Virus record (IMG/VR): IMGVR_UViG_2585427781_000002
Strand: one strand, 5' to 3'
Source: a virus
Taxonomy: Duplodnaviria > Heunggongvirae > Uroviricota > Caudoviricetes
DNA length: 40,067 nt
Positions 18,343 through 39,715 of this stretch are shown piece after piece. How positions within the stretch are numbered: the first letter of the stretch is position 1; each line of letters starts with the position of its first letter. Below the pieces are notes generated by a model that was not told the origin of the DNA, made no database searches, and saw nothing but the letters and a program-made list of their open reading frames with translations. The position numbers and the translations under genes were made by a program.

Positions 18343-20432
18343 CCTCCGGAAGTCAGCCAGGGGTTAACATCGTCAGTTACTGTTTTCTTCCGTTTTTGTT
18401 TTTTAACAGGCGTGGATACCGGTTCCGGTGAGGATGACGGTTCGGTACTGTCCGGGACACACTCCAGCCAGGTTTCCCGGCTCGCCCACTCCGGTGCATC
18501 CGGCCAGCGGATCTTTTCGTATCCATGCAGAATGACCAGAGCCTCGGCATACACCATCAGGTCAAAAGCTTCGTTGGCACCGCGACCCGGCTTACTCCAT
18601 TTCCCGTCACTGCTCCGCTCTTCATACGTCAGTTCGTCGTAAAACCAGCTCCCCAGCCAGTCAGGGAAATGCACATAGCCGGGACCTGGCGAGTCACGCC
18701 ATAACGCGTTATTCACCCGGTCTTTCAGTGCATCCGTCTGAAGAAGCCAGAGCGGCACATCACCTGCGGCCTGCGCCCGTCGGCCCGTTCGTCCGGTGTT
18801 ATCAGGGAATGTACGGGTGATCAGTTTTGCGCGCCGGATGCTGTCGCCCTTAAACAGGTAAATACGTTTACCAAGGCCATCACGACGGCAACGACGCCAG
18901 AATTTATAGGCATTATCAGTGACCCCGTCTTCACCGCCGGAGTCCACCGCCATTGCCATCAGTCGCATTTGTTGAGAAGGATCGGAGGCCAGCGGCCAGC
19001 TTTTATGAAAAACATCCGTCAGCAGGACATCCCAGTCTTCCGGATAGCTGGCCGGATCAATTCGCTGGCTCTCCCCGTCGCTGTCACCGCGCAATGACTG
19101 CGTGATGTTGTAACGATCAATAATCCAGCGTTCGCCACGGCTGCCATAGCCCGTTACCTGAACCACAAAACGGCGATGACGTCCCGCCTGCACATCCACT
19201 GTCGCCACAAGAAAATTAACGCCATCTGGCACACTGCGGGAAGGAACTGGCTCTGCCCGCTGCTCAAGCAGTTCACTTTTTCGTTGCTCCATGCTGGCGC
19301 GGGGAAGATAAGGTAATCCCCAGTCGGTGTTGATAACCGCCCTGAGTGTTTCTTCACTTCCTGTCGCTTCATACTCCTGTTCTGCAGTCAGTAATTTGTA
19401 AACCAGTTGCGCCCAGGTCTGATACGCAGCAGCTGGCCCTTCCATCCAGAAACTGGCGATACGGGAGCGGCGCGGTTCACCGGAAACGTTGCCGTTACAA
19501 TCAATGACCTGACCTTCACGCAACCAGACTCCTGCACTATTGAGCTCACGCTTTTTCTCCGCAGTGATAATGCCGCTGCAGTGCGGGCAAAGTAGATACG
19601 CCGCCTCACTGGCTTTAAAGGGATCCGGTTCATTACGGTAGCCGGTCATGGCATCCATGGCTGGCTGAAAATATTCACCGCAGTGCGGACATGGCCAGTA
19701 CCAGCGGCGGCGGTCACCACGATTGTAAAGGGAAAGAATACCAGTCGTCGGTGGCGCTTCATGAGGCGACTTACGTCGCCATTTGCTGTCGCAGATGTCA
19801 CGTCCCGGCGAGCTCTCCACCAGAGTCATCCCGGCGGACATAAATGTGGTGGTACGTTTTGAGGCCAGGGAGAAACCATCACCCTCGCTGTCGATATTCT
19901 CCGGAAAACGGTCGTAATCGGTTAAGGCGACAAACCGGTAATCCGACGACGACATAATGTTGACCGAGGGCCAACCAATTTTAAGGAACGAGCCATCCCT
20001 GAACGTCTTATCATGGACATTATTGTCATTACGACGTGGACTCATTCTTTTCTTTACCGCCGCACTGCTTCTGAACGTTCTGTCGAGGCGCTTTTTTGAA
20101 TGCTCGCGGGCCTTATCTTCGGTCATCTGCACAACGAGCATGTCCGAAGGATCGCAAACGATGGTATAGACAATCCATCCATCGATCAGACCAATGGTCT
20201 TCCCTGTTCGCGCAGGACCAACAAAAATCACCGCATCGTATTCACGCGATGCCAGGCAGTTCATGGGCTCAATGATGTAGGGTGTCAGTTCAGGATCCCA
20301 TGGCACCGAGTTACCAGCCCCCTTGGGAACACGCATGAATTTTTTAACAGCCTCCGAAATCGGCATGCGACGTGGTGGGGAAAATCCTGCCGATATGTCC
20401 CTTCCCAAATTTCGGGCTGATGAAAAACCCAT
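18333..20432 (-). CDS. terminase large subunit (lambda GpA family)
   Basis: 699-aa ORF; Walker A-like GPARTGKT, zinc-binding CPHCGEYF...CPHC as in lambda A, C-terminal nuclease region. Confidence 0.9.
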   Translation of the reverse strand: MGFSSARNLGRDISAGFSPPRRMPISEAVKKFMRVPKGAGNSVPWDPELTPYIIEPMNCLASREYDAVIFVGPARTGKTIGLIDGWIVYTIVCDPSDMLVVQMTEDKAREHSKKRLDRTFRSSAAVKKRMSPRRNDNNVHDKTFRDGSFLKIGWPSVNIMSSSDYRFVALTDYDRFPENIDSEGDGFSLASKRTTTFMSAGMTLVESSPGRDICDSKWRRKSPHEAPPTTGILSLYNRGDRRRWYWPCPHCGEYFQPAMDAMTGYRNEPDPFKASEAAYLLCPHCSGIITAEKKRELNSAGVWLREGQVIDCNGNVSGEPRRSRIASFWMEGPAAAYQTWAQLVYKLLTAEQEYEATGSEETLRAVINTDWGLPYLPRASMEQRKSELLEQRAEPVPSRSVPDGVNFLVATVDVQAGRHRRFVVQVTGYGSRGERWIIDRYNITQSLRGDSDGESQRIDPASYPEDWDVLLTDVFHKSWPLASDPSQQMRLMAMAVDSGGEDGVTDNAYKFWRRCRRDGLGKRIYLFKGDSIRRAKLITRTFPDNTGRTGRRAQAAGDVPLWLLQTDALKDRVNNALWRDSPGPGYVHFPDWLGSWFYDELTYEERSSDGKWSKPGRGANEAFDLMVYAEALVILHGYEKIRWPDAPEWASRETWLECVPDSTEPSSSPEPVSTPVKKQKRKKTVTDDVNPWLTSGGWL

Positions 20433-20440: not shown

Positions 20441-20980
20441 CTAGAGACTCTCTCCTTCCTCATCAGGAATTAATTCAGCAGCACAAGCCTCGTAGGATTT
20501 TTCCTGAAGAGTGTATCGCAGGTCATCAATGGCCTGCTGTACAACGCCAACGGCCTGAGGAGTCAGGGCGCAATCGCGTTCAAGAACATCCGGAATTGTC
20601 TCCAGAACCTGGACGACAGCCTTTCTCATGGACGAATAGACGATGACTACTTCATCAACGGGGATGAGTTTTCGCTGCTCCTTTTCCAACTTGATCCTTT
20701 CATTTTCCGACTGGTACCAGTCCTTTCTCTCTTTCGGCTCCATACGGGATGGATCATGAACAGAGTCTGCTGCCTCATGCTTCACACTAAACAGGGCAGG
20801 CCCGACATGCTGCAGGGCGTAAACGGGGTTCCCCCTGACAGTCGCAGCCACAGGAGTGTTGGCCGCGAGGAGCCGTTTTTTTACTGTGTCCCGGTGAAGC
20901 CCAAAGGCCTCGGCGATTTTAAAAACACTCCAGTAATAAGCATCACCGATCCCGCTCACATTTGACATAAGCAACTCCAT
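20441..20980 (-). CDS. terminase small subunit (Nu1-like position)
   Basis: 179-aa ORF immediately upstream of the large terminase; N-terminal helix-turn-helix-like segment and acidic C-terminus. Confidence 0.7.
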   Translation of the reverse strand: MELLMSNVSGIGDAYYWSVFKIAEAFGLHRDTVKKRLLAANTPVAATVRGNPVYALQHVGPALFSVKHEAADSVHDPSRMEPKERKDWYQSENERIKLEKEQRKLIPVDEVVIVYSSMRKAVVQVLETIPDVLERDCALTPQAVGVVQQAIDDLRYTLQEKSYEACAAELIPDEEGESL

Positions 20981-21530
20981 CTGGCAGGTGAAAATCAGGT
21001 TTATTTATATATTTCAATTAATTGCAAACTAGTCTAATGACAGGGAGAAAAAAATATTGTACAGCTGAAAAGAGAAATAACTTTTAATTATCAATAAATT
21101 ACCAAACATGCTGCCGCCACCATGGAAATGCAAAAACTAGCCTTTTTCCGCGACGCTCCCGCCCCGTGGCAGGGCCCCCCACTGGGAGGACCCGACAGCC
21201 TGACAACCGTGACGAGCATCTGTAACAGAGCTTTACATAATGGCATGGGGATAATTCAGAAGGACATCACAGCATGCCCACACAAATTAGTGTGAGTGTC
21301 CTGTCTCTTACTACGCGCAGGACTGACGAGCATGAGGGGAAAATACGAGAACCGAAATGCCTTATCTTCAGAAATGCAGCCGGCATCCGAACTGGACGAT
21401 ATTGTAAATTCACCTAAATACGAGGCATTGCTGTAGTTGAATTGCATTGCTGTATTAGCCTGACAGTGACAGAATACGATATTGACTCTGTCACTTGTGA
21501 AATGGTCAGAATGGTTAGCAGTTATGGTGA

Positions 21531-21737
21531 TCAGTCAACCACCAGGGAATAATCCTTCGTATTCTTATCGTGCTTTACTAACGCGGCCTCAATTGCCCTG
21601 AATGCTTCCAGAGACACTTGATGTTCTATACATGCAATTACAACATCCGGGTAACCCATCGAAATGGTGCTAATAAGCATAGTTTTTACACGAACCTGCT
21701 CCTGGGAGGGGGCATCAGTGTATTGATCTTTATGCAT
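21531..21737 (-). CDS. conserved small lambdoid-phage protein of unknown function
   Basis: 68-aa ORF; ...[38 protein letters not shown]... resembles a small ORF I recall near the right end of lambda. Confidence 0.5.
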
Positions 21738-22032
21738 TTTGTCGCTCCATGCGTTTGCTCTTCACTTACGGCTAAAAATATAACGTCAAATCACTCAGCA
21801 TGAAAGAGTGAAAGATTCAGCGCGTTTCCCTTACATAATCTGTCGTTTGTATTCTCTTCAGGCATACCGAAAAGACTAGGTATTGTCACACAACCAATAC
21901 CATCGACAATCGAGATTTATACCTATTCGGTAATGTTTAAATATAACAAAACCCCGTAAAAACGAGGTTTATGGGTAATTTGTATTGTTGAATAGCATCT
22001 GATGAGAAATTGATGCTAATGCTATAAACAGA

Positions 22033-22206
22033 CTAGATTAAATCAATCTTGATATCATAGCTTTCAAGACCAGTCATTTTTTCCCGTGCAGTAAACTGGA
22101 TACTGGTAACTTCTTTCCCGGTCTTTTTCTTAAGCTCAATGATTTTTTTTGTTATATATTCAGAAATATCTGCTTCTGTTTTTGTTTTTAACTCTTCAAT
22201 GTTCAT
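22033..22206 (-). CDS. gnsB: GnsA/GnsB family protein
   Basis: From ATG 22206: MNIEELKTKTEADISEYITKKIIELKKKTGKEVTSIQFTAREKMTGLESYDIKIDLI, 57 aa, matching the GnsA/GnsB family as remembered. Confidence 0.8.
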   Translation of the reverse strand: MNIEELKTKTEADISEYITKKIIELKKKTGKEVTSIQFTAREKMTGLESYDIKIDLI

Positions 22207-22378
22207 CATTTCCTCTTTTAGTCTGTTATGACTTTCCTGGTACACAGTAGTGTCAATTATATGGAGCAAGCGTATAAAAGATAAGATGAAACATCGCAAT
22301 AATCAACATACGACGGTCTAAATTTCACACAAACAGATAAAGATGATTATCATTTATTATCAATGCATTAGAATCAAA

Positions 22379-22609
22379 TCAATTCAAGAGTCTCATTGCT
22401 GCTTCCAGAATTTCTTCTGAAGTTACATGCCGATCCGCTGCTACATAAATGACTTTATGATCTCCGGTCAGAGATGGAAACCCTGCAGCCATTACAGTGA
22501 GGTGTGTTGTTTCGCCATTTGGATATTCACGCATGATGGTGTTAACTCCGGTCATCACTGGCACTACCATTGCTGGTTCAGAGTTAAAAAAAACTATTAT
22601 TTTTTTCAT
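22379..22609 (-). CDS. hypothetical small protein upstream of the GnsB-like gene
   Basis: 76-aa ORF from ATG 22609 (MKKIIVFFNSEPAMVVPVMTG...); the in-frame upstream extension in the track is probably not translated. Confidence 0.5.
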   Translation of the reverse strand: MKKIIVFFNSEPAMVVPVMTGVNTIMREYPNGETTHLTVMAAGFPSLTGDHKVIYVAADRHVTSEEILEAAMRLLN

Positions 22610-22880
22610 AATGTTACCGTAATATGTGAGTATCCATCGACTAGACACTAAGCAAAAAAGCTCCCGAAGGAGCCTTCATTTTCACTTTCTTAAATCTAAC
22701 GACAGACGGCTAACATTTAAGTATTGTGAAATATTATCAAATGTAATCATCATTGATTTACAAAAGATACATTTTGCCCCGAAAGGATTCCTGTCAGAAA
22801 CATCAAAAGATGATGTTCTATACTGAGAACCATGGCAACACGGGCATCTAAAGTGAATATGGTTTGTAATATTTTCTACC

Positions 22881-23093
22881 TCAAAGTGCCACAACATGAA
22901 CAGCCGCGGGGCCTTTAGGTCCGTTCTCAATACCAAATTCGACTTCCTGATTCTCAGTTAACGTTTTGAAATCGTTGCTCTGAATAGCTGAGAAATGGAC
23001 AAACACATCTTTGCTACCATCTTTCGGCGTGATGAAACCAAAACCTTTTTCAGGGTTAAACCATTTCACTAAACCAGTCATTTTGTTAGACAT
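22881..23093 (-). CDS. cspI: cold shock protein, CspA family (CspI-like)
   Basis: [70 protein letters not shown]; canonical RNP motifs, 70 aa; long AT-rich upstream region consistent with a csp 5' UTR. Confidence 0.9.
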
Positions 23094-23456
23094 CATTATT
23101 ACCTTTTGAAGAAGTTAGCCCTTGGGCAGAATGGTCCGAAAAAAAATATCAGAGAGAAAAACCAACAAGGAAATCTCAAGAGGTACAAATAATAAAATTA
23201 TAACAATGACTGCTTCAGATAATTTTGTAACAAACCAGAACACCATTAACGCATGATTAACCAACCATAGCAAGGATTACTTTTGTAAAGAAAAACACAC
23301 GAATGAAACAATAGCTTTATTTATTAATAAAACGTGTCATTCTGTCTAATGACCTTTTATCTTACCCTTAAGATTTCAAGGATTTTGACTCATGGAAGAG
23401 TCCTTTTTATTTAAATTTCACATTCAGCGCTAAAAATAATCCGATTTAATATTAAT

Positions 23457-24484
<1,028 letters not shown>

Positions 24485-24611
24485 GGATATTTATCAGGAT
24501 TTATCAGTTTCTAATCTCTAGATATGTTAAGCACTCAGCCCGTCAGTGGTGGATACTGGCGTGTGTAATAAAGGGGGGATGGCTGATTACCTCTGATAAG
24601 GGAATGTAACT

Positions 24612-24908
24612 ATGAACGGTATAGATCCATTCAAACCAATCAGTAAGCAACTTGATGTGGTATTACCACAACTGACAAAACACAACGACCTTCTGGATAA
24701 AGTGTTGCCTTTTTATATTGCTGTTACCGCAAAATTATCAGGTAAAACTCGAGAAGAGGTTCTCAAATATAACATGCTGGCTTTAGAAACAATTTTTGGC
24801 TCAGAAAAAGCGGGAAAATCACCCAAAGAGCTGGCAGAATCTCAATTTGCTTATATGACAAATATAAGAGTATCCGAAATCTTTGATAAGCTACCAGACA
24901 TTGAATAA
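24612..24908 (+). CDS. hypothetical protein encoded antisense to the lysis cassette
   Basis: 98-aa ORF with AAGGGA RBS-like sequence upstream of the ATG; no signal peptide; AT-rich; convergent with the 72-aa gene. Confidence 0.5.
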   Translation: MNGIDPFKPISKQLDVVLPQLTKHNDLLDKVLPFYIAVTAKLSGKTREEVLKYNMLALETIFGSEKAGKSPKELAESQFAYMTNIRVSEIFDKLPDIE

Positions 24909-24932
24909 TTTCTAAGCGGCAGTAATGCCGCT

Positions 24933-25151
24933 TTATATTTTTTCAGCCAAATCTCTCAAGAACTGTTTGGCATGTTTTACCGCAGTAACTTCATAATAAT
25001 CCAAACCAGCTCCTTCAAGTCGCTCAAGGTTGATGTTCAGATCAAAAATTTCACCGGCAAAACGTTCTTTGTCCTGTAACGTTAAGATTACCGTAACTTT
25101 ATTCTCAAAATTGCGGGTCCCTTTCACAATCAGTTCATAGTTTTTAGTCAT
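24933..25151 (-). CDS. hypothetical small protein between holin and endolysin
   Basis: 72-aa ORF starting 5 nt downstream of the holin stop; same strand as the lysis genes. Confidence 0.5.
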   Translation of the reverse strand: MTKNYELIVKGTRNFENKVTVILTLQDKERFAGEIFDLNINLERLEGAGLDYYEVTAVKHAKQFLRDLAEKI

Positions 25152-25155
25152 TGTC

Positions 25156-25371
25156 TTACTCTCCTCTCGCAGCCTTACGCCTGTCTTCTTTAATCTTGAA
25201 ATAAAGGTTTGTCAGATACGTCAGCATGCCAAATACCAGACTACCCAATACACCTATTGCCGCCCACTGTGAGGGTGTGACTTTATCGAGCAACTGTAAA
25301 AACCAGTAGCCAGCACTGCCTGCAGAGGTGCTGTAGGCGATGCCCGTTGTTAACTTATCCATGGATTTCAT
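25156..25371 (-). CDS. pinholin, phage-21 S type
   Basis: From ATG 25371 with GGAGGTGA RBS: [71 protein letters not shown], 71 aa, with the dual-start motif (M1..M4) and two transmembrane segments, matching S21 as remembered. Confidence 0.9.
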
Positions 25372-25561
25372 AGCCTCACCTCCGCAGATAACGGATGGTG
25401 TACACGGTTTGGTTCGAAGAAGGAAAGAAGTTACATTAGCGTAAGGCCCGAACATCTATTCAAAAAGAAAAACGCCAGCAATTATTCTGGCGTAGCTAAA
25501 AATATCGTATAATCTTACACTTCAAAAAATAACTTTATAAAATGCCATCACATCATATCTT

Positions 25562-26284
25562 CTAAGAAAATCTTGATAAATATTGGTGCGGAGGCACACC
25601 AAAATATCTTCTAAAAACACTTACAAAATATGATGCATTGTCATACCCGCATATTCCCGCCACCTTGCCGACAGTATGGTTACTGTAGATCAATAATCTT
25701 TGCGCCATCATCATTCGTTCTTCAAGAATTAATTTACTAAACGATAATCCTTCGTCTTTTAATTTTCTTTTTAACAAACTCTCGCTCATATATAATCTTG
25801 AAGATATATCACAAAGTCTCCATGACGCTGAGATATCCGAGTGAATAATAGCCTTAACTTTACAACCTAAGCTATTAAGACTTCCGAACAAAAAACTTTG
25901 CACTATTTTCTCTGAAGATAAGACAGCAAGACATGCAAGTGATATTTGATTTCTAACTACATCCACGGTTTTGCTATCACAATTCAAGCATGCAACCAAG
26001 TTCTTTAACAATGAAAAATCTTCACATTCTACTATCAAGTATGACGGATAAAACCTTCTTACAGAAAAAGGTGAGAGTGTGTAGTTTTTAAAGAAATCAT
26101 TAACTGTTTTCTCCTCAACATCTACGATCATTAGATGATCTGTATTTGACGAAAAAAGATCTTTTAAATTGTATTCAATGAGGACAGCATTTCCTTTTTT
26201 AAACAAAATATCTTCTTTACCAATTCGGACACCAAACGAGTTCAACACCAAAATGATAGAACATATGTATGGCATATTATCCAC
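25562..26284 (-). CDS. AraC/XylS-family transcriptional regulator
   Basis: 240-aa ORF with a C-terminal AraC-type helix-turn-helix (...GICGYDNASYFVSVFRRYFGVPPHQY); low-GC gene with a 400-bp AT-rich upstream region. Confidence 0.85.
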   Translation of the reverse strand: MDNMPYICSIILVLNSFGVRIGKEDILFKKGNAVLIEYNLKDLFSSNTDHLMIVDVEEKTVNDFFKNYTLSPFSVRRFYPSYLIVECEDFSLLKNLVACLNCDSKTVDVVRNQISLACLAVLSSEKIVQSFLFGSLNSLGCKVKAIIHSDISASWRLCDISSRLYMSESLLKRKLKDEGLSFSKLILEERMMMAQRLLIYSNHTVGKVAGICGYDNASYFVSVFRRYFGVPPHQYLSRFS

Positions 26285-26681
26285 CTGATATCATTGGGGT
26301 TACACCAGGTAAGTATAGGTGGAAAATCAATATTCGCCAGTTCAACAATAAGGAAAATCTCATTGCATCACAACTATAAAACCATGTGTTTAACTCACAA
26401 AAAACAAATCATTAAACTAATCTGTTATATTATAATAGCTGCGTGCAATAATAATATTATATACTCTTAATATTCACTTGAAATATCTTCATATAAAAAC
26501 AGATTGAATAAAATCGTTTGGGGCTGGTATGTTTACCAACATTAAATTGCATCTCAATGTTTTCTTTAGCGTGAACAGGATTTTTATAAAAACTGACACT
26601 ATGAGCATCATAGCGTAGTTTTTACGATTGTAAATATCCTGCATACAGGAACTCATCACTTTCAGATGATATCGCATACAG

Positions 26682-27641
26682 TTAATTCACCATCAGTCTT
26701 AGAGCCAGTTCTTCCGGATAGGGATCGAAGTAATTCTGTGTAAGCAAGTAATCATTAGGATACTCACCCAGATAATGCTTCAGCAGAGTCAACGGCGCAA
26801 GAAGAGGCAATGTGCCAAAGCGATAGTTAAGTATAACCTCGCTCAACTCTTTACGCTGGCGTGTACTTAAGTAATTACTAAAATACCCCTGTATATGCAT
26901 CAGCACATTCGTGTGATTTTTACGTGATGCTGGTTTTCTGAGAATCGCCATCAGATTATCACGATACACCTCAAAGTATGATTCAAGGTCCGCCCACTCG
27001 TGTATTGCAGCCACAAATGGTCCCATATCTTTATAGCCTGCCTGGCTATGCGCCAACAACTGAAGCTTATAACGACTATGAAAAGCTAATAACTCTCTTC
27101 TTGATAATTTCTCCTTGTAAAGGTGATTGAGCTCATGCAAAGCAAAAACTCTTTCAATAAAATTCTCACGAAGCACTGGATCATGTAATCGCCCATCCTC
27201 TTCAACCGGTAGCCAGGAAAACTTTTCCATCAAAGTGCTCGTAAATAGTCCCACTCCATCTTTACGACCTCGATTACCATTTTCATCATAGACACGCACG
27301 CGCTCCATGCCACAGCTGGGAGATTTAGCACAAACCACAAACCCCGATACATCCTTTAATTTGTCCATATAAGAACGACTAAACTCTGTCATTCTCTCTG
27401 TCACATCCTCATTCTGGTCGTGGCTGAAACACATCCGTATATTTCCTTGCTTCGAGCGCACAAGTCGTAGAGCAGGACGCGGAACTGGCAGCCCTATAGC
27501 CATTTCCGGACATACTGGTCTGAATGTTACCCATTCCACTAATTTGTCCATTAAAAAGTCATCTCTTTTGTGACCACCATCAAAACGAACAGCAGAACCG
27601 CCCAAACAACCGCTGATCCCAATCACAGGTTTTTTTATCAT
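26682..27641 (-). CDS. DUF523 (TudS-like thiouracil desulfidase family) fused to DUF1722
   Basis: 319-aa ORF; N-terminal GISGCLGG...FDGG with conserved cysteines (..RPVCPE.., ..CAKSPSCGMERV..) typical of DUF523, and a helical C-terminal half consistent with DUF1722. Confidence 0.65.
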   Translation of the reverse strand: MIKKPVIGISGCLGGSAVRFDGGHKRDDFLMDKLVEWVTFRPVCPEMAIGLPVPRPALRLVRSKQGNIRMCFSHDQNEDVTERMTEFSRSYMDKLKDVSGFVVCAKSPSCGMERVRVYDENGNRGRKDGVGLFTSTLMEKFSWLPVEEDGRLHDPVLRENFIERVFALHELNHLYKEKLSRRELLAFHSRYKLQLLAHSQAGYKDMGPFVAAIHEWADLESYFEVYRDNLMAILRKPASRKNHTNVLMHIQGYFSNYLSTRQRKELSEVILNYRFGTLPLLAPLTLLKHYLGEYPNDYLLTQNYFDPYPEELALRLMVN

Positions 27642-27833
27642 TTCCTCCCCCTTGACTAATTCATTAACACATAAACTTTGTAGTGCACGGACTAAATTGC
27701 CTTTCTGGCTTCATCACTGACAATTTTTCTGTTATTGACTATTCCTAATATAGTAGGAAAGTTCTTTAAGTGATCGGTCGTACTCATCTATCTTTCATAC
27801 TTACTCTCAACTATCAAAAGTACAGGATTTATT

Positions 27834-28358
27834 ATGAAGTTATGGCCTGTGTTGACTGGCATTGCACTCTCTTTCACTCTTATAGCATGTAAGGCCCCGA
27901 CACCACCTAAAGGTGTGCAGCCGATTACAAATTTTGACGCCAACCGCTACCTCGGAAAATGGTATGAAATAGCTCGCCTCGAGAACTGGTTCGAACGTGG
28001 TCTGGAACAGGTCAGCGCTACTTATGAAAAACGGAACGACGGAGGGATTCGCGTACTTAACCGTGGATACGATCCAACGAAAAACAAATGGAGCGAGAGC
28101 GAAGGTAAAGCATACTTTACTGGAGATACTAAAACTGCAGCGTTGAAAGTTTCGTTTTTTGGCCCCTTCTATGGTGGCTATAATGTAATCAAGCTGGATG
28201 ATGAGTATAAGTATGCTCTTGTCAGTGGTCCGAACAGAGAATACCTATGGATTCTGGCAAGGACCCAAACTATTCCAGATAATGTAAAAGCAGACTATGT
28301 GCGTACCGCTCAAAAGTTGGGATTCAATGTCAATGAACTATTATGGGTTAAACAATAA
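27834..28358 (+). CDS. blc: outer membrane lipocalin Blc
   Basis: 174-aa ORF with lipoprotein signal peptide and lipobox (LIAC), then ...NFDANRYLGKWYEIARLENWFERGLEQVSATY...KVSFFGPFYGGYNVI...YLWILART.., matching bacterial lipocalin as remembered. Confidence 0.9.
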   Translation: MKLWPVLTGIALSFTLIACKAPTPPKGVQPITNFDANRYLGKWYEIARLENWFERGLEQVSATYEKRNDGGIRVLNRGYDPTKNKWSESEGKAYFTGDTKTAALKVSFFGPFYGGYNVIKLDDEYKYALVSGPNREYLWILARTQTIPDNVKADYVRTAQKLGFNVNELLWVKQ

Positions 28359-28386
28359 AATCCCCACCCGAAATGATACTTATTAG

Positions 28387-28413
28387 AAAAAAACCAGCCT
28401 TTGGGGAGGCTGG
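28387..28413 (-). terminator. intrinsic terminator downstream of Q (tR'-like)
   Basis: Stem CCAGCCT (28394-28400) / AGGCTGG (28407-28413) with loop TTGGGG; on the minus strand the hairpin is followed by a 7-nt U-run (plus-strand A-run 28387-28393). Lies about 100 nt downstream of the Q stop. Confidence 0.6.
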
Positions 28414-28513
28414 CTAAATCAGGAAACAAGCTGTTATATGATAATAACTACGTTGCGATTCCAACATTTAAAATGTTAGACTAATGAAAATCAGACAGCA
28501 ACTTTTCCTTTAA

Positions 28514-28906
28514 TTATTTCGAACAATCAGCATCCATCTCCAATCGGAGATCCAACACCATCAGCATGCCCTCCACTACGCCCTCAGCTTTCTGGAGCAT
28601 CCTGCCAACCCAACAATCAGATCGCCCATGCTTACGTGCAAGCGCCATAAAAGTCATGCCGCCGACATAATAGTCCACCAATAAATCATGTAAATCGCTG
28701 TTGTTTTTTTTCAGGCGAGCCATACATTCACAAATGATCATCGCGTCATCGTCACAGCATTGCGGACGAGATCTTACTTTTGAAGGAATTAATCCCTTAA
28801 AACCGGCGGCAATGGACGACCAGGTCACATCTTCATGATTATTAGCCGCCCATGCCCCCCAACGCTCAAGAACCATCTGAATATCACGCATCAACTTACT
28901 CCACAA
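28514..28906 (-). CDS. late-gene antiterminator Q (phage 21 / QuuD-like)
   Basis: ...[73 protein letters not shown]... closely resembles Q21-type antiterminators as remembered; the start may be the internal Met (MRDIQ). Confidence 0.85.
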
Positions 28907-28908
28907 AA

Positions 28909-29958
28909 TTAGGCCAGCACACCAATTGCCAGCGCGCGATCGATAAATCGAAAAATCAGCTCCAGTTGGGAGCCATACTTCTCTTCAAATGCCACGGTAT
29001 CCGTATGCAACTCGTCGTGATGCTTTCTGCACAAAGGCAACACAAAGAGATCATGTGCTTTGGTTCCCATTCCGCCCTGCCCGTGACCAATTAGATGATG
29101 CGGATCGTCGGCTGGCATACCGCAGCAAGCACACGGCTGTGTCTTAACCCAGCGTGTGTATTTCTCCTTAACCCAACGGTGACGTTTAGGCAGCTTCATG
29201 AAAGATTCCGGAGACTCTGGATCAACGGTGATGCTTACCACCGTCTTTTCCTGTGATGGGTTTTGTTGCTGGTGGGCGTGAGGCAACGGTGCAAGATTTT
29301 TTGTGCGCTGTTTCAATATGCTGGTGGCGGTCTGCTCTCCCGGTACGATGTCGCTTTCGCGGTACACCGAGCAGTTTTTTTCCGCTGGTAATCCCAGCGA
29401 GCGACGTAATACCACTTCCGGTAGCGCGTCCGCCACCTGATTGCGGACCGCCCACCAGGATAATTCAGCCAGAGATAATTCACGCTCCTGCGTACCGCTT
29501 ATTGCGTGACCGATGACGTCAATCATCCATGCTGACAGGTTTTGATGAGCAAGTTGCTCGAGTGATTCGGATGTCTGGTCACGCAGCTGGTTGTCGCAGT
29601 GCCAGCACAACACCATTGCGCCGGTACCATAACGGTGAATAACGGTTTCGCTGTGATGATAATCGCCGTGTGGCCACTGGCAGGATTTAATATGGCGCAA
29701 CAGCCAGTCAGACAATGCACCAGCACCACCAGCAGCACGAATTACCCGTGCGTTACTGAAAAACGGCAGCAATGTTTTGTCTTCCACCAGCGGCTGGCGA
29801 ACGGCAGGAACGACCCCGGACGGCAGATTACGCATGCTTTTCGGTTCCGGCTCCACCAGTACCCGGGTATTGTGGAATACCGGCATGGATTCACGGCCCG
29901 GCTTAACGACCACCAGCCCGAGTTCCGGTACCAGAACAGGTCGAAGTAATACCCGCAC
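28909..29958 (-). CDS. DUF968-family phage protein (YdfU-like)
   Basis: 349-aa ORF with C-terminal Cys/His-rich motif ([18 protein letters not shown]...CRKHHDELH); translationally coupled to neighbours on both sides. Confidence 0.6.
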
Positions 29959-29959
29959 G

Positions 29960-30238
29960 TTACCTCCAGATGCGTTGCTGGAATGTACGGGACGGACGCG
30001 GTGGGCGTTCGGAGTAAGGCAATCTGACTGAGATTATCCAGTGACGGTAGTCGAGACTAAGAGCTTTCTTAACCTCGTATCCGCGCCTGCGGTAACACTG
30101 AATTATCCATTCAGCCTGCTCTTCAGTGCATGGAGGGTGCTGGAACCATTCAGACTTGAATGCGTGAGAATACCGCTCGTGCGTGCAGGCAAGAACGGGC
30201 GAATTATCAGAATTGTAATATTTTACGTTGCGTGCCAT
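29960..30238 (-). CDS. hypothetical phage protein
   Basis: 92-aa ORF ending 1 nt before the DUF968 start; Cys/His-containing. Confidence 0.45.
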   Translation of the reverse strand: MARNVKYYNSDNSPVLACTHERYSHAFKSEWFQHPPCTEEQAEWIIQCYRRRGYEVKKALSLDYRHWIISVRLPYSERPPRPSRTFQQRIWR

Positions 30239-30304
30239 CGGTTTTCTCCGGTGGCACGGTGTTACTCAGCGGGAGTTCAGCCCCGCGCAAGATTGTAGAT
30301 GAGT

Positions 30305-30556
30305 TTATTCTTCTGCAAAAGCTGAAAAGCCTGCTTTTATTCCGATCTCTTTCAGTGCCTGTAATGAAGTGACAAACTCACCTTCGCGCAAGATAAATCC
30401 GTCTGTCACTCGACCATCCACAAAATTAATTAACGCAGCCCCATTCTTTCGCAAACACATAATGCGGTAATGACTAACAAGATTTCCATTTTCAACGCAC
30501 ACAGCATAGAGGCCATCTTCACAAAAAATTTTACGCAGTTCTTCGATGTTCATCAT
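30305..30556 (-). CDS. hypothetical small phage protein upstream of hok
   Basis: 83-aa ORF (MMNIEELRKIF...); same size and position as Qin rem but identity not confirmed. Confidence 0.45.
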   Translation of the reverse strand: MMNIEELRKIFCEDGLYAVCVENGNLVSHYRIMCLRKNGAALINFVDGRVTDGFILREGEFVTSLQALKEIGIKAGFSAFAEE

Positions 30557-30671
30557 CAGAATCCTTCCGGATAATTAGCTCTCCCCTTTAAGGGACCATC
30601 CCTCTTATCCCTGCGCGCTACTTAAGTATTTTTGATTCTATTCCGGCACCGTCCAGAACTTCAAACGCGTT

Positions 30672-30702
30672 GAAAATAAAAACAAAACCCCGCCGAAGCG
30701 GG
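30672..30702 (-). terminator. intrinsic terminator of the hok transcript
   Basis: Stem CCCGC (30689-30693) / GCGGG (30698-30702) with loop CGAA, followed on the minus strand by a U-rich run (plus-strand A-rich 30672-30688). Confidence 0.5.
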
Positions 30703-30772
30703 TTAAGTGCGGGTGCGTTGAGGATGCCTGCCACATCAGAGGTGGCGAGGGATTTCTCCCTCGCCGGGTCTC

Positions 30773-30928
30773 TTACTCCTCAGGTTCGTAAGCTGTGAAG
30801 ACAGCGACCTCCGTCTGGCCGGTTCGGATTCGTACCTCGCAGAGGTCTTTCCTCGTTACCAGTGCCGTCACTATGACGGTTAAACAGATGACGATCAGGG
30901 CGATTAACATCGCCTTTTGCTGCTTCAT
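30773..30928 (-). CDS. hokD: Hok/Gef-family type I toxin
   Basis: From ATG 30928 with AAGGAG RBS: MKQQKAMLIALIVICLTVIVTALVTRKDLCEVRIRTGQTEVAVFTAYEPEE, 51 aa, single transmembrane helix plus the conserved Cys; an in-frame upstream extension (mok-like) is present in the track ORF. Confidence 0.9.
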   Translation of the reverse strand: MKQQKAMLIALIVICLTVIVTALVTRKDLCEVRIRTGQTEVAVFTAYEPEE

Positions 30929-31185
30929 AGCCTGCTTCTCCTTGCCTTTCGGCACGTAAGAGGCTAACCTACATGTGTCTAGCATGAAATTGGCCTCAGA
31001 TTAATGTTAAGCGTCTTGCAGGACGCGTAATGTTAACTGGGGCTTTTCTCTACCTGCCGTTGGTGTTCGTGCCCGAGGCAGATAGCCTCAAGCACCCGCA
31101 GTCATTCTACTTAACTAAGATTTCCCCGCAAACCGTTTTGTCCAGCACAGTAAATATCCAACTAAACCAATGGAGTTCGCTGTAT

Positions 31186-31365
31186 TTACCGCCAGTATTC
31201 AATGCACATGACCGCCATGAACACCCCTAAAAAAAGGGCATTTATATATCCAAATATTAATATCAAAACATCAACTTTTTCCATATACCTTGCTGTGAAG
31301 ATGATGGGCATACATGATGCGAACAACCAGAACGCAACAAACAAAAACTGCAATGCGTTTTTCAT
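31186..31365 (-). CDS. hypothetical small membrane protein (two predicted transmembrane helices)
   Basis: 59-aa ORF from ATG 31365 preceded by a G-rich RBS-like sequence; strongly hydrophobic (ALQFLFVAFWLFA... / LILIFGYINALFLGVFMAV); AT-rich codon usage. Confidence 0.4.
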   Translation of the reverse strand: MKNALQFLFVAFWLFASCMPIIFTARYMEKVDVLILIFGYINALFLGVFMAVMCIEYWR

Positions 31366-31847
31366 TATTCCCCCTACAATCAATGTGCAATAACATTTAA
31401 ACACACCTCAATTTAGCCGGACATATAAATATCTAAACCAGAAAAAATCACTTACATAGCGTTACAAACTCTTTAGTCTAAATATTCATCGTAAAACATT
31501 CCCCATACTTATCAGCCCGTTCTGCGCCAGGTAGCTCATTGCCTTATCTGGGAACCTGTAATCAGGTTTCCGGATGCTGGTGGATTTTCGCGTTTTAGTT
31601 GTTCATAAAAGTGCACAGCTTTAACCAGTTCTTCTGATGTAACCGGGACTGGCGGGGCAGTGAATAAGGCCTGAATTTCATAGTTCGGCCTATCGTTACA
31701 ATCCTCTTTTTTCGGTACATATTTCCAGTCACCAGACCACTACTTCCCCTGAAAGTCCGTAACGCCTTTTTTTCACGTAGCGATATCGCCATGCCTTTTT
31801 TTTTGCTTCCCCCGCCGTTTCATGCCCTTCCTGATAATTAACCTCGC

Positions 31848-32024
31848 TCATTCATCGCCCCACTCATCACAATATGCTTCGACCGGAGTTTTTCCTGCTT
31901 CATAATCATCACGCCATGCTTCAGCATCAGCAGCACTGCCACCACGTAACTCTGCATAGTCCATTAACAGTTCATGCCATTCTTCAAAACCGACGTTGTA
32001 TTTAGTTGAACCAAAATCAGCCAT
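31848..32024 (-). CDS. hypothetical small acidic protein (58 aa)
   Basis: ORF below the track threshold, found by hand translation: MADFGSTKYNVGFEEWHELLMDYAELRGGSAADAEAWRDDYEAGKTPVEAYCDEWGDE, with GAGGAAG RBS-like sequence upstream. Confidence 0.35.
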   Translation of the reverse strand: MADFGSTKYNVGFEEWHELLMDYAELRGGSAADAEAWRDDYEAGKTPVEAYCDEWGDE

Positions 32025-32061
32025 TTTGTTCTTCCTCTTCGTCTTTTATTTCGTGATATGA

Positions 32062-32199
32062 TTAATTGCAGTAGTTAAAGAAAATATCTTTTGCTTCGTC
32101 ATGTATTTCATCAGGCGTCGCATCATTATCCACTTCGAATTCATCCTCGAAATCTCCACCGGCTATTCCCGTTTCAATAATTATTTTAAACTTTCGCAT
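32062..32199 (-). CDS. hypothetical small acidic protein (45 aa)
   Basis: Hand-translated ORF MRKFKIIIETGIAGGDFEDEFEVDNDATPDEIHDEAKDIFFNYCN; in tandem with the 58-aa ORF; an upstream hairpin (CCGCCC-GAAA-GGGCGG) lies between an AGGAGG and the ATG. Confidence 0.3.
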   Translation of the reverse strand: MRKFKIIIETGIAGGDFEDEFEVDNDATPDEIHDEAKDIFFNYCN

Positions 32200-32706
32200 T
32201 TAACTACCGCCCTTTCGGGCGGCCTCCTGATGTTCTGAGGGTGCAGAAATCCCTCCGGTTAAGGATTAAATTTTTAACAGTGCTAAATTTAATTATTCAG
32301 TTCTGGATTTTGTCACCCTGCGTATCCGCGCTTTCCCGTTACGCTCAATCTGAATTAGCTTTTCTATATTTTTTCGTCTTTCCCGTTCCTCCTGGCGCAA
32401 GAGCCTTACATCATCTGCCAGTCTGGTTTCTCTTTTCGCCACAGAGAGCATCCAGTCAAATGGCTCCACAACTGCACCTCAGATTTTACAGCGGACCTGA
32501 CGCTCTTTTTCGTCAACCCGGACAGAAGCGTGATGGCAATATGGTCTTTCCGATGGCTCATAAAGAAAATTAACCTGATTACGAGGGTCATCCTCTTTTA
32601 TCGGAAATAAAACGATATTGCTTAACTAATCCTCTGGTTTTATTTCCATGCTCCTCTCCTTTGATGCTAATGCCAGCGGTAATTGAAGCCTGATAGCTAA
32701 TTTCAC

Positions 32707-33129
32707 TCACAGTACCGCCTCCTGAAAATTACCCTGATAGAAAGCCAGTACACGCTGCATAGCTTCACTCTTCCGGCACTCGCGACAGATTATGTTTAGA
32801 CGACTGTCGTAGCGACGTATTTCTCCATCAGGTAGTGACCAGATAAGGTCCGGATCAACCACAGCGGGTTTCTTCACCTTCGCCCTAGAGAGTTTTTTGC
32901 GGGCATTTTGCCAGTCCTTTCGTGCCTGTTCAGACGGGAATAACCCGTAGCCGGAGTTGTATACATAACCACTGGCAACCAGCTCTCTGGCAAGAATGCT
33001 CATCAGATATCTTGTCGCACCTGTTTTAGCTTCCAACTGTCGTAATGTCTCGCGACCGCTCTGGCGCACAAGTTCGACCACCTGCTCTTTAATTTTTTCC
33101 CGCTCTTCCTGTGTAAAAACTTTTGCCAC
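32707..33129 (-). CDS. hypothetical phage protein (replication-module position)
   Basis: 140-aa ORF; its first ~42 codons overlap the last codons of the O-like ORF in another frame. Confidence 0.5.
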   Translation of the reverse strand: MAKVFTQEEREKIKEQVVELVRQSGRETLRQLEAKTGATRYLMSILARELVASGYVYNSGYGLFPSEQARKDWQNARKKLSRAKVKKPAVVDPDLIWSLPDGEIRRYDSRLNIICRECRKSEAMQRVLAFYQGNFQEAVL

Positions 33130-33878
33130 AAGTCCTCCTTAAAGGCAGCCTGTTCGTAAAGGTTCACGATCCGCCCCCAAATCCACTGCGCACACGCCAA
33201 ATCCTCCCTGCTACCCCACTGGCGTTTTTTCGCACTAAACACAACCGCGTCGGGGTTCCGGATTAAAAAATCCTGTTCAGCGGTCTGCAGGTCCGGTTGC
33301 GAAGCTTCCGGACGAAAAGTGTTTTTATTCTCTGTAGTAATCTCTGTTGTATTCTCTGTAAGATCATCAGGCCATTTTGACCCGATGACATTGGGTCGTT
33401 TTGAACCAATGGAGCGTTTCATTTTGACCTCTTCCATCGTGTCATTTTGACCTGATGGAGCGGCGCATTTTGAACCGATGGATTCGTTCAATTTGCCACC
33501 ATCTAAAAGCTCGCTCCCATAGTTGATCGTGTAGAAATTGGTCATATCGCGCTTTGATTTATTGAGCTTTTCACAACGCAAAAGCCCCAGCGTTTTCAGA
33601 CTTGCAAACGCGCGCTTTAACGTTGACTCTGACCAGAATGGGAACTGTTCCAGCCATTGTTCCGTTGTGTTGTAAATCCAGCGAACACCATCACATTCCA
33701 TGCCGGAATTGGTATCTCTCAACCAGTAATGCAACTGCTGCAACACAATGGCTTCATTTAAGCCAATCTTCATCGCAAGCTGTGTGTTTATAACCAGTGG
33801 GCGTTCAGCAAAAAGAAGGCTCATAATTCCATCCAGCTTTTTGTTGGTATTGCTGTCGATACGCAAGTTTGAAAGCAA
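33003..33878 (-). CDS. replication initiator, lambda O-like (replisome organizer N-terminal domain)
   Basis: N-terminal ..LNEAIVLQQLHYWLRDTN...RWIYNTTEQWLEQFPFWSESTLKRAFASLKTLGLL.. resembles phage replisome-organizer domains; the central SIGSK repeats are encoded by the iteron array inside the gene. The start may be an internal Met. Confidence 0.7.
   Translation of the reverse strand: MLSNLRIDSNTNKKLDGIMSLLFAERPLVINTQLAMKIGLNEAIVLQQLHYWLRDTNSGMECDGVRWIYNTTEQWLEQFPFWSESTLKRAFASLKTLGLLRCEKLNKSKRDMTNFYTINYGSELLDGGKLNESIGSKCAAPSGQNDTMEEVKMKRSIGSKRPNVIGSKWPDDLTENTTEITTENKNTFRPEASQPDLQTAEQDFLIRNPDAVVFSAKKRQWGSREDLACAQWIWGRIVNLYEQAAFKEDLWQKFLHRKSGKKLKSRWSNLCARAVARHYDSWKLKQVRQDI
33373..33500. repeat. 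iteron array (candidate origin of replication) inside the O-like gene
   Basis: Six direct repeats of CATTTTGA(A/C)C(N)GATGG-like units at about 23-bp spacing (starts near 33373, 33397, 33420, 33443, 33466, 33489), the last one degenerate. Confidence 0.65.
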
Positions 33879-34326
33879 TTGCTTTTTCTATAAGTTCGTC
33901 AGTTTCACGATCCACTACGGCAGGATCAGCAAAAAGCAGTCCGGACTCCACCACATCGCCATATTCTTTGTTTAACCCGGCGATCATGTACGTGATGCTT
34001 TTTCCGTCACTAATTTCACGATACAACCTGAAATCATTAATCCGGATAGCCTCCATAATTGCAGGCACTAGCGCCGTGAACTTTTCACGCTTATCCCTGG
34101 TGTCGATAGCCTTCCAGCGTTCGAATATCTTCACTCGATTAACGCCAAGCGCTCGCTGATCAACCGCGCCACCTTCATCTGTGACACGCTGAACATCGAT
34201 GTTCGGGCGCTCTTTCAAAGCCCAGAATGCTTCAGTGATTAATATCGTCGCCTGCTCCTGTGTCATTCCTGGTCGACATATCCAGGCATCCAGAGCCTCA
34301 CGAGCCTGTTCAGGAGTGATTTTCAT
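33805..34326 (-). CDS. hypothetical early-region protein (CII-position)
   Basis: 173-aa ORF between the Cro-like gene and the O-like gene; no confident family assignment. Confidence 0.45.
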   Translation of the reverse strand: MKITPEQAREALDAWICRPGMTQEQATILITEAFWALKERPNIDVQRVTDEGGAVDQRALGVNRVKIFERWKAIDTRDKREKFTALVPAIMEAIRINDFRLYREISDGKSITYMIAGLNKEYGDVVESGLLFADPAVVDRETDELIEKAIAFKLAYRQQYQQKAGWNYEPSFC

Positions 34327-34537
34327 TGTTCAACCGCCCCGCCCGCTTCGTCTTACGATATTCGTCATAAACCTTGGGATCATACAGAAGCTCCCCGCCA
34401 GATGCCTCCTGTAGACGCATCGCGCGACCTTCAGGAACCAGCTCTTGCCATTGAGAAACAGCAGATGGGTCAACGCCAGCAGCTTTCGCTACTTTGGCTT
34501 TCGTACCGTAAAAATTAATTACGTCTGATTTAAACAT
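34310..34537 (-). CDS. dicC: Cro-like repressor, DicC-like
   Basis: From ATG 34537 with GGAGGT RBS: MFKSDVINFYGTKAKVAKAAGVDPSAVSQWQELVPEGRAMRLQEASGGELLYDPKVY..., 75 aa, divergent from the dicA-like gene. Confidence 0.7.
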   Translation of the reverse strand: MFKSDVINFYGTKAKVAKAAGVDPSAVSQWQELVPEGRAMRLQEASGGELLYDPKVYDEYRKTKRAGRLNNENHS

Positions 34538-34614
34538 CGCACCTCCAATATTGAGTTTTCTCAATGCTAATCACTCAAGGAATCTCAAGTCAAGGGTTAT
34601 TAAGATATCTAAAT
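34538..34614. promoter_or_regulatory. divergent promoter/operator region between the dicC-like and dicA-like genes
   Basis: 77-bp intergenic region with palindrome TTGAG-TTTT-CTCAA (34551-34564) and repeated CTCAAG(G/T) units, consistent with repressor operators. Confidence 0.4.
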
Positions 34615-35022
34615 ATGAACGAGAAAACTTTAGGTCAACGCATTAGAGAAAGACGTAAGCAGGTAGGCTTAAGTCAAAACGGTTTAAGCAAAGCTGCTGG
34701 CGTATCTGGCTCATCAATTTCATTATGGGAAAGTGACCATACAGCCCCGCGTGGGCAAAATTTGCATCGCCTCGCCGAGGTATTGCAATGTTCACCAACC
34801 TGGATACTGTTTGGCGACGAGGACAAAACACCAGCTCCCCCTGTTTCACTCGATAGTGCCTTAGACTTATCGGAAGATGAGTTAGAGATGCTGCGTTTGT
34901 ATCGCGCACTTCCTAAATCAGAGCAACAAGCACAACTCAGCGAACTCCGCGCCCGCGTTGAGAATTTTAATCGCCTGTTCACCGAGCTATTAGAGGCTCG
35001 CAAACGCAACAAGCATCAATAA
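34615..35022 (+). CDS. dicA: CI-like repressor DicA (HTH XRE family)
   Basis: From ATG 34615: MNEKTLGQRIRERRKQVGLSQNGLSKAAGVSGSSISLWESDHTAPRGQNLHRLAEVLQCSPTWILFGDEDK..., 135 aa, closely resembling DicA as remembered. Confidence 0.9.
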   Translation: MNEKTLGQRIRERRKQVGLSQNGLSKAAGVSGSSISLWESDHTAPRGQNLHRLAEVLQCSPTWILFGDEDKTPAPPVSLDSALDLSEDELEMLRLYRALPKSEQQAQLSELRARVENFNRLFTELLEARKRNKHQ

Positions 35023-35214
35023 TCATCCCTTCACAAAATTTTAAAGCCTTACATTTCAATGTATTGGCTTTATCTTGCGCCAATACTTGAGTTTTCTCAT
35101 CAAAAAACCTTGACGAAAAATAATGAGAAAACTAAATTACCTCCATCAACACACCGCACGGTGTTCTCAGCAAACAGTTCCGCTACCCCGGCGTTAAGGG
35201 GAAATGAGGTCAGC

Positions 35215-35367
35215 ATGGATACTATCGATCTTGGCAACAGCGAATCTCTGGTATGTGGCGTGTTCCCCAACCAGGACGGTACGTTCACCGCGATGACATA
35301 TACCAAAAGCAAAACGTTTAAAACCGAATCTGGCGCGCGTTGCTGGTTAGCCAGAAACACTGACTGA
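35215..35367 (+). CDS. ydfA: YdfA-like small protein, first gene of the dicB operon
   Basis: From ATG 35215 with GAGGT RBS: MDTIDLGNSESLVCGVFPNQDGTFTAMTYTKSKTFKTESGARCWLARNTD, 50 aa. Confidence 0.7.
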   Translation: MDTIDLGNSESLVCGVFPNQDGTFTAMTYTKSKTFKTESGARCWLARNTD

Positions 35368-35744: not shown

Positions 35745-35913
35745 TCCCTGCGTCCTCTAACCTTTTGATATAGCGGTCCTCCAAGAAGCGGTAAATTTTG
35801 TCGAAATCATCTTTCCCCTCTGGTTTATTCAGAGGATTACAGGACCCGTAAGTAGCGGCATACATTTCAACCGTTTTATCAAAAATATAAGAGACAAATT
35901 CTTCTTTAGTCAT
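35713..35913 (-). CDS. hypothetical small protein antisense to the dicB operon
   Basis: 66-aa ORF from ATG 35913 with AAGGAA RBS-like sequence: MTKEEFVSYIFDKTVEMYAATYGSCNPLNKPEGKDDFDKIYRFLEDRYIKRLEDAGIKSPVKSPLS. Confidence 0.4.
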   Translation of the reverse strand: MTKEEFVSYIFDKTVEMYAATYGSCNPLNKPEGKDDFDKIYRFLEDRYIKRLEDAGIKSPVKSPLS

Positions 35914-39681: not shown

Positions 39682-39715
39682 CTAAAAGCCACACTAACTA
39701 ATGAGAGAAGTTGAA

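Follow-up and report, generated by a model that had tools for sequence, protein, structure and literature searches.

The window, by which we mean the whole 40,067-nucleotide stretch of viral DNA analysed here, is a lambdoid prophage in reverse orientation. The genes for tail, head and terminase come before a low-GC accessory region and the lysis genes, and these are followed by Q, ydfU (DUF968), the immunity region, dicB/DicF and an exonuclease gene; in matching genomes, xis/int come next, beside rspAB. Throughout its right half the window shares 99.9% identity with prophages located at the rspAB/Qin site in many E. coli chromosomes. The prophage setting given in a preliminary description of this DNA is borne out by the neighbours of the gene under study, which include Q, a P21-type holin, lysozyme, Rz, terminase, portal and tail genes.

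The gene itself is a single minus-strand ORF in the ORF list of the window, with an ATG start and 319 codons (319 aa), and its product combines a TudS (DUF523) domain with a DUF1722 domain. Fusions of TudS and DUF1722 have been named RudS, a [4Fe-4S] tRNA 4-thiouridine desulfidase (Jamontas et al. 2024, NAR; PMC11417400), and we refer to the gene as rudS. One of the published enzymes, RudS_vir, is gp66 of Escherichia phage 1H12 (YP_009909557.1, NC_049947); it is also 319 aa long and is identical to the window protein at 293 of 319 positions (92%) in a gapless alignment. The following features were annotated around rudS.

25156..25455, minus strand: P21-type holin gene, essD-like (RefSeq 25156-25371; Pfam Phage_holin_2_1, E 6e-34)
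25472..25493, minus strand: terminator-like hairpin in the gap between the AraC-like gene and the holin gene (scan; dG -11.3, z -2.7)
25562..26284, minus strand: AraC-type (YdeO/GadX-like) regulator gene (RefSeq 25562-26275; Pfam HTH_18/HTH_AraC)
26585..26625, minus strand: terminator-like hairpin ~60 nt past the rudS stop, flanked by an A-run and a U-run (scan and RNA fold)
26682..27641, minus strand: rudS coding sequence, 319 aa (ORF, Pfam TudS and DUF1722, 92% aa identity to RudS_vir)
26715..27068, minus strand: DUF1722 domain, aa 192-309, all-helical, containing Ser239-Arg240 (Pfam, helical AF2 model, residue mapping)
27195..27623, minus strand: TudS/DUF523 catalytic domain, aa 7-149 (Pfam, alignment to 6Z92, conservation, Foldseek)
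27642..27833, no strand: divergent blc-rudS intergenic region, 192 bp (sequence; ~94% conserved with phage 1H12)
27834..28358, plus strand: blc-type outer-membrane lipocalin gene, on the strand opposite the late operon (Pfam Lipocalin_2; NCBIfam Blc, 312.6 bits, cutoff 267)
28392..28415, minus strand: putative tR', an intrinsic terminator just downstream of Q (9-bp stem, 5 GC pairs, U7 tail)
28470..28545, minus strand: putative late promoter pR', at the end of Q or just past it (promoter scan and direct reading)
28514..28906, minus strand: Q-family antiterminator gene (RefSeq 28514-28891; Pfam Phage_antitermQ, E 8e-51)

In this arrangement rudS is a moron in the lambdoid prophage slot between Q, with its putative pR'-tR' unit, and the lysis genes; on its downstream side the slot ends at the holin gene, with which the lysis cassette begins. 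The order Q, blc on the opposite strand, rudS, AraC-like gene and holin is kept in 73 of the 81 loci compared (80 IMG/VR contigs and phage 1H12). Phage 1H12 itself has this order. Between the window and 1H12, the DNA from Q to rudS is 97% identical, terminator included, and rudS is 91.7% identical, whereas the AraC-like neighbour is only 77% identical and the downstream lysis genes differ in type (1H12 has a 216-bp holin, the window one of the essD/P21 type). The two copies also differ in state, the one in the window belonging to a prophage integrated at the Qin site and 1H12 being an isolated, sequenced phage. The AraC-like gene matches the NCBIfam YdeO model at E 1e-32, which is below the cutoff. 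Its identification with EHEC PsrA, PsrB or PatE was rejected, the best O157-derived phage fragment being 42% identical over the HTH half only.

Domains, residues and predicted structure

Both domains were recovered in full by profile HMM search. PF04463 (2-thiouracil desulfurase, corresponding to DUF523/TudS) matched aa 7-149 over profile positions 1-141 of 141 (E 5.8e-40, 137 bits; Pfam cutoff 34.7 bits), and PF08349 (DUF1722) matched aa 192-309 over positions 1-117 of 117 (E 9.4e-40, 136 bits; Pfam cutoff 22.5 bits). The preliminary description had read the ORF as a DUF523/DUF1722 fusion with three spaced cysteines, and had proposed profile searches and structure prediction as checks. The fusion is confirmed by these strong matches, both profiles being complete and far over their cutoffs, and the cysteines and the fold agree with it as well, as set out below.

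The names under which the protein is currently filed come from other comparisons. The DNA of rudS in the window is 100% identical to the RefSeq gene of WP_000592549.1, labelled 'YbgA family protein', and the PHROGs entry of the protein is phrog_3275, 'unknown function'. The NCBIfam YbgA model NF007549 matched the C-terminal half alone, with 189.1 bits under an equivalog cutoff of 237. YbgA (E. coli b0707) consists of DUF1722 alone; it has no catalytic TudS domain and leaves s4U unaffected. The RefSeq name thus understates the window protein, because of its additional catalytic domain and its score below the YbgA cutoff, and on the same two grounds a YbgA equivalog was rejected; both labels could become RudS. 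TudS (DUF523Vcz; PDB 6Z92, 6Z93, 6Z96) has in common with the N-terminal half the fold, the three Cys ligands, the Glu and the Ser-x-Ser motif, but it is a single domain of ~150-166 aa with ~26% identity to the window protein, and it acts on free thiouracil and 4-thio-UMP without lowering tRNA s4U. Membership of the stand-alone TudS class was also rejected, given the 319-aa length with fused DUF1722 and the behaviour of RudS enzymes in growth rescue, which is unlike that of TudS. The same two domains as in the window protein are found in RudS_KT (Pseudomonas putida PP_0741) and RudS_ST (Salmonella STM1389/ORF319), both of which are chromosomal and match it position for position in catalytic and tRNA-binding residues.

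The candidate [4Fe-4S] ligands are Cys12 (27606-27608), Cys44 (27510-27512) and Cys110 (27312-27314). They align with Cys10, Cys43 and Cys104 of TudS (PDB 6Z92) in a pairwise HMM alignment in which the CPE and SPSCG motifs also line up. Glu46, Arg55, Ser107 and Ser109 are the putative catalytic residues. We mapped the positions of RudS_KT onto the window protein through a surrogate homolog (11 of the 12 listed residues share KT numbering) and not through the RudS_KT sequence itself. In this mapping the cluster and catalytic positions pair as C17/C12, C49/C44, C114/C110, E51/E46, R60/R55, S111/S107 and S113/S109, and the tRNA-contact residues Arg24, Tyr25, Asn26, Ser243 and Arg244 of RudS_KT correspond to Arg19, Phe20, Asp21, Ser239 and Arg240. 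A Tyr-to-Phe change at the tRNA-contact position of RudS_KT behaves in a wild-type-like manner (PMC11417400), and Asp instead of Asn, as in Asp21, is the majority state, found in 49 of 67 diverse homologs.

These 67 sequences are representatives, of 34-56% identity, from an exhaustive HMMER search for RudS homologs that returned 1,170 clusters at E<1e-30. Among them the cysteines are conserved in 65-66 of 67, Glu46 and Arg55 in all 67, Ser107 in 66 and Ser109 in 63. Closer to the window protein, Cys12, Cys44, Cys110, Glu46, Arg55 and Ser107 are invariant in 50 enterobacterial homologs (69-97% identity), as are the tRNA-contact residues Arg19, Phe20, Asp21, Ser239 and Arg240, and Ser109 is conserved in at least 90% of them. 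RudS_vir has the same three cysteines, with 26 aa substitutions separating it from the window protein. The three cysteines are therefore present, aligned with the ligands of TudS and conserved across homologs.

An AF2 model of the window protein, built from an alignment that left out the 1H12 sequence, has a mean pLDDT of 74.7 and a pTM of 0.75; the segments modelled with low confidence are 14-25, which takes in the Arg19-Asp21 loop, and 288-319. A Foldseek search of the model against the PDB gave five TudS structures as the only significant matches (prob 1.00, TM 0.69, TudS-normalised), all to the N-terminal half; the helical DUF1722 half matched no solved structure in this search. Among viral predicted structures (BFVD), a fold search with the RudS model returned nothing below E 0.9.

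Enzymatic activity of the RudS family

[quoted passage not shown] Six orthologs, RudS_vir among them, lowered the s4U content of E. coli tRNA 4.7- to 26-fold when overexpressed, as in all in vivo activity data for RudS, whereas stand-alone TudS or YbgA (DUF1722 alone) left it unchanged (PMC11417400). The activity of RudS_KT was abolished by mutations in the three cluster cysteines, Glu51, Ser111, Ser113 or Arg60, and its DUF1722 domain binds the anticodon arm of tRNA (PMC11417400). RudS_KT also cut the UVA growth delay of E. coli from ~105 to ~60 min (PMC11417400). The link between DUF523-DUF1722 fusions and removal of s4U, which the preliminary description had put forward, is thus established in the published RudS family and includes a phage enzyme, RudS_vir. 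Since the family, its mechanism and a phage ortholog from the same cassette have all been published, the RudS finding as such is already known.

It is highly probable that the window gene encodes a RudS-type tRNA 4-thiouridine desulfidase, which would use its [4Fe-4S] cluster to remove the sulfur of s4U8 hydrolytically from intact host tRNA docked by DUF1722. The domain architecture and the residues are those of the window protein itself and the activity is that of a 92%-identical ortholog, from which we infer that the window allele is active as well. As for the substrate, the initial wording 'thiouracil or tRNA 4-thiouridine desulfidase' holds for tRNA. Thiouracil would be a side activity at most: RudS enzymes, RudS_vir included, were poor at rescuing a uracil auxotroph on 4-thiouracil, unlike TudS (PMC11417400).

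The protein could instead be a TudS-like salvage desulfidase acting on free 4-thiouracil, 4-thiouridine or 4-thio-UMP. It would then reuse thiolated pyrimidines or render them harmless, those released by tRNA turnover in infection being one possible source. The catalytic domain is indeed a bona fide TudS domain. Moreover, on 4-thiouracil no other tested RudS enzyme had as short a lag as RudS_vir, and RudS_vir was less effective on tRNA than its high protein level would predict (PMC11417400); the phage lineage may therefore be shifted to free-base substrates. However, no RudS, not even RudS_vir, supported growth on thiouracil as TudS did, and all RudS orthologs lowered tRNA s4U where stand-alone TudS did not (PMC11417400). 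In addition, DUF1722 and the tRNA-contact residues Arg19, Phe20, Asp21, Ser239 and Arg240 have been kept under purifying selection. We consider a salvage function improbable.

Selection, distribution and origin of rudS

The rudS ORF is intact in all 80 viral contigs, which carry 35 nucleotide alleles and 15 protein variants, and the key residues are unchanged in all 15 variants. By the Nei-Gojobori method, dN/dS is 0.14 against the 1H12 allele (dS 0.29) and ~0.2 against 98% alleles, with an overall range of 0.14-0.24. These low ratios, together with the intact ORFs, indicate purifying selection on rudS.

Among phages, full-length RudS was found in this E. coli lambdoid group only (tblastn against 50,697 phage genomes), besides which the same search gave a single fragment, partial and 68% identical, from a Salmonella record. 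A scan of viral contigs with an alignment of close homologs likewise gave the same E. coli cassette only, among the 80 loci kept. The gene is also retained in phages isolated as particles. In bacterial genomes it is widespread within the species: rudS was found in 1,136 of 5,426 complete E. coli genomes (~20%), with at least 80% coverage in 1,064, and 883 of the 5,426 have most of the cassette. The E. coli copies are almost all chromosomal, a genome having between one and three of them, and a second rudS of the chromosomal type is present on some E. coli plasmids. Disruption by IS elements or truncation is seen in some strains, such as E. coli B/C41(DE3) and strain KMi012; in E. coli B/C41(DE3), Q and blc are kept and rudS has been reduced by IS3 to a 49-codon stub. 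It has been stated that 'E. coli lacks RudS', both in PMC11417400 and in reviews up to 2026. This is true of laboratory strains but not of the species, because ~20% of complete genomes carry a prophage rudS that looks functional.

The closest non-phage relatives are chromosomal proteins of Citrobacter, Salmonella, Klebsiella, Enterobacter and Serratia, which are likewise 319 aa long and are 70-76% identical to the window protein. In Citrobacter, rudS is the last gene of a SnoaL/SDR/amine oxidase/DUF1365/CFA-synthase/DUF2878/x/DUF3833/rudS operon, and such a chromosomal context has been described as light-responsive (PMC11417400). The light-responsive contexts of chromosomal RudS comprise MerR/LitR, photolyase, or the SDR/amine oxidase/DUF1365/CFA-synthase/DUF3833 operon. 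The phage copy is without these, and none of the neighbours in the Citrobacter operon has travelled with it. An unnamed 175-aa gene lies upstream of the chromosomal rudS of Citrobacter, and its equivalence with the phage blc was rejected for lack of similarity (E 1.8). With blc unlike this gene, blc and rudS were not captured together from a Citrobacter-type operon.

Transcription and possible role in the prophage

The intergenic region 27642..27833 contains the ribosome-binding site of rudS, GGGGGAGG, and a promoter scan of this region found no consensus sigma-70 promoter upstream of the gene. Nor does the region between blc and rudS contain a LexA box (CTGT-N8-ACAG with at most one mismatch), a pattern that gave 18 matches versus 13 expected by chance. 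Direct SOS control of rudS was rejected on this basis. An effect of the gene on UV/SOS signalling or prophage induction, as raised in the preliminary description, is speculation: no LexA box lies upstream, and a literature search found no paper linking s4U or RudS to prophage induction.

The putative tR', a strong intrinsic terminator, folds with a dG of -14.9 kcal/mol (z -3.6) and is conserved in phage 1H12 save for a one-T length difference in the T-run. Upstream of it, the candidates for pR' are TGGAGA-18-AATAAT, from the scan, and TTGCTG-17-TAACAT, read from the sequence directly. The pR'-tR' unit is a putative one, assigned by its position and by the lambdoid gene order after Q. The hairpin past the rudS stop reaches a dG of -17.5 kcal/mol (z -7.0), with 0 of 200 shuffles as good, and probably functions as the downstream terminator of rudS.

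With a terminator directly after Q, rudS falls between the putative tR' and the lysis cassette, where Stx phages carry stx. After induction, Q-antiterminated late transcription would carry rudS to high expression. The blc gene is on the opposite strand and hence not expressible from the late promoter. The terminator of rudS itself and the opposite strand of blc together suggest that the cassette consists of independently expressible morons, which could be active in lysogens also.

In the mechanism that we propose, the TudS domain would hold a [4Fe-4S] cluster on Cys12, Cys44 and Cys110, and the free fourth iron of the cluster would bind the sulfur of s4U8(9) in tRNA. Glu46, Ser107, Ser109 and Arg55 would then catalyse the hydrolytic exchange of sulfur for oxygen, converting s4U into U, while the helical DUF1722 domain is predicted to dock the tRNA at its anticodon arm; without DUF1722, TudS acts only on free bases and nucleotides. 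Erasure of s4U would remove the near-UV chromophore; its crosslink to C13 leaves tRNA uncharged, sets off a burst of ppGpp and delays growth. The most economical hypothesis for the benefit of rudS is relief of the UVA-triggered sequence of tRNA crosslinking, stringent response and translation arrest, in lysogens or in late lytic growth. A more specific proposal is that the prophage gene is a fitness module, transcribed under Q and perhaps, in lysogens, also from a weak promoter belonging to the gene. In cells whose prophage UV has just induced, s4U8 erasure would keep UVA from crosslinking tRNA, setting off the stringent response or stalling translation, and would so shield late phage protein synthesis. 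We offer this proposal tentatively and regard it as rather unlikely.

It could also be argued that rudS is a passenger, that is, a captured chromosomal gene which is silent or neutral in the prophage and has no role for phage or lysogen. The lack of a convincing promoter directly upstream in the promoter scan and the IS-disrupted or truncated copies in E. coli B/C41(DE3) and KMi012 would fit this, as would the composition of the rudS cassette, which is AT-rich (35-43% GC); AT-rich DNA is often silenced by H-NS. A neutral gene is, however, hard to reconcile with an ORF intact in 80 of 80 contigs, with the dN/dS range given above among alleles diverged to a dS of 0.29 with every catalytic residue kept, with a fixed position in the late operon, and with retention in phages isolated as particles. 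We therefore think it very unlikely that rudS is a mere passenger. A phage-specific role other than UV protection (tRNA remodelling against tRNA-directed defence, altered tRNA stability, or another thiolated substrate) is least credible of all and is pure speculation: loss of s4U does make tRNA-Ser and tRNA-Tyr less abundant in E. coli and trigger degradosome decay in Vibrio cholerae according to the literature, and a location in the late operon would time RudS activity to lytic growth, but PADLOC defence models matched none of RudS, Blc and the AraC-like protein, our literature search found no link of s4U to phage defence, and 2-thiocytidine is unaffected by RudS (PMC11417400).

The position of rudS in the late operon raises the idea that a temperate phage could reprogram the modification of host tRNA at the time of UV-linked induction. 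If the fitness-module proposal is true, the textbook claim that E. coli is without an s4U eraser would be contradicted, and about one in five E. coli strains would be intrinsically different in near-UV growth delay. Given that ~20% of E. coli genomes carry rudS, the classic physiology of near-UV growth delay may be strain-dependent.

Carriage of rudS on prophages and plasmids

Prophage rudS is present in 1,136 of the 5,426 complete E. coli genomes (~20%). This level of carriage runs against the published statement that E. coli is without RudS, which appears both in the RudS paper (Jamontas et al. 2024, PMC11417400) and in a 2026 review. In E. coli B/C41(DE3), Q-blc is retained and rudS is a 49-codon stub truncated by IS3 (positions 4873-5019 of the C41(DE3) locus, L010). 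C41(DE3) derives from BL21(DE3). BL21(DE3) was the expression host in the RudS paper (PMC11417400).

Besides the prophage, plasmids are a second mobile route for rudS. In the plasmid collection, 297 records matched (Klebsiella, 99; Escherichia, 58; Shigella, 12; and others), 174 of which are predicted to be conjugative. The plasmid-borne chromosomal-type RudS shares ~73% amino acid identity with the phage RudS. On the Enterobacter plasmid pCUVET18-121.2 (L091), the DUF3833-rudS pair adjoins lacIZY and IS5 copies:

L091 8453-9960: chromosomal-type DUF3833-rudS pair

Neighbors of rudS in the cassette

The following features flank rudS in the window:

27834-28358 (+): Blc-type outer-membrane lipocalin gene (NCBIfam Blc, 312.6 bits, above cutoff)
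26285-26681: very AT-rich spacer of 397 bp between rudS and the AraC-like gene
26585-26625: strong, bidirectional-looking hairpin inside the spacer
26634-26607 and 26400-26373 (-): two sigma-70-like hexamer pairs inside the spacer
25562-26284 (-): AraC-type regulator gene, directly 3′ of rudS

Since blc lies between Q/tR' and rudS on the strand opposite to rudS, Q-dependent late transcription would cross it antisense. The unnamed 175-aa gene upstream of the Citrobacter chromosomal rudS was considered as a counterpart of the phage blc and rejected, the two being unrelated.

The AraC-type regulator is a constant member of the cassette, and the hexamer pairs in the spacer could drive its expression independently of rudS. 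The protein resembles YdeO/GadX (NCBIfam YdeO, E = 1e-32, below cutoff) and falls within the broad group of AraC-like regulators encoded by prophages, such as PatE, PsrA, PsrB and AppY, which control acid resistance and the T3SS in E. coli. It shares only 42% identity, in the HTH half alone, with an EDL933-derived phage fragment, and 77% with the copy in Escherichia phage 1H12; the latter value indicates faster divergence than that of rudS.

Qin-like elements and the terminase

Additional genes and RNA elements were located elsewhere in the window:

18333-20432 (-): open terminase large-subunit ORF, 699 aa
22835-23251 (-): cspA thermoregulator (Rfam, 109.8 bits)
22881-23096 (-): cspI-like cold-shock protein gene, 71 aa
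30923-31097 (-): Sok antitoxin RNA (Rfam RF01794, 107.8 bits), upstream of ydfU
36190-36241 (+): DicF antisense sRNA (Rfam RF00039, 72.5 bits)

The cspA thermoregulator overlaps the cspI-like gene and extends upstream of it. Both are located in the low-GC accessory region from the lysis genes to the terminase, together with ymcF/ynfN/gnsB-like small genes, an arrangement of the same kind as that in Qin. The Qin arrangement is also seen at DicF, which adjoins dicB/ydfD-like genes. The Sok RNA belongs to a hokD/sok locus, a type I toxin-antitoxin system.

The prophage in NZ_AP021893.1 is 99.9% identical across window positions 20500-39829. In its annotation, the terminase large-subunit counterpart is a pseudogene that contains an internal stop, whereas the ORF in the window is open; the window prophage may thus be better preserved than some relatives.
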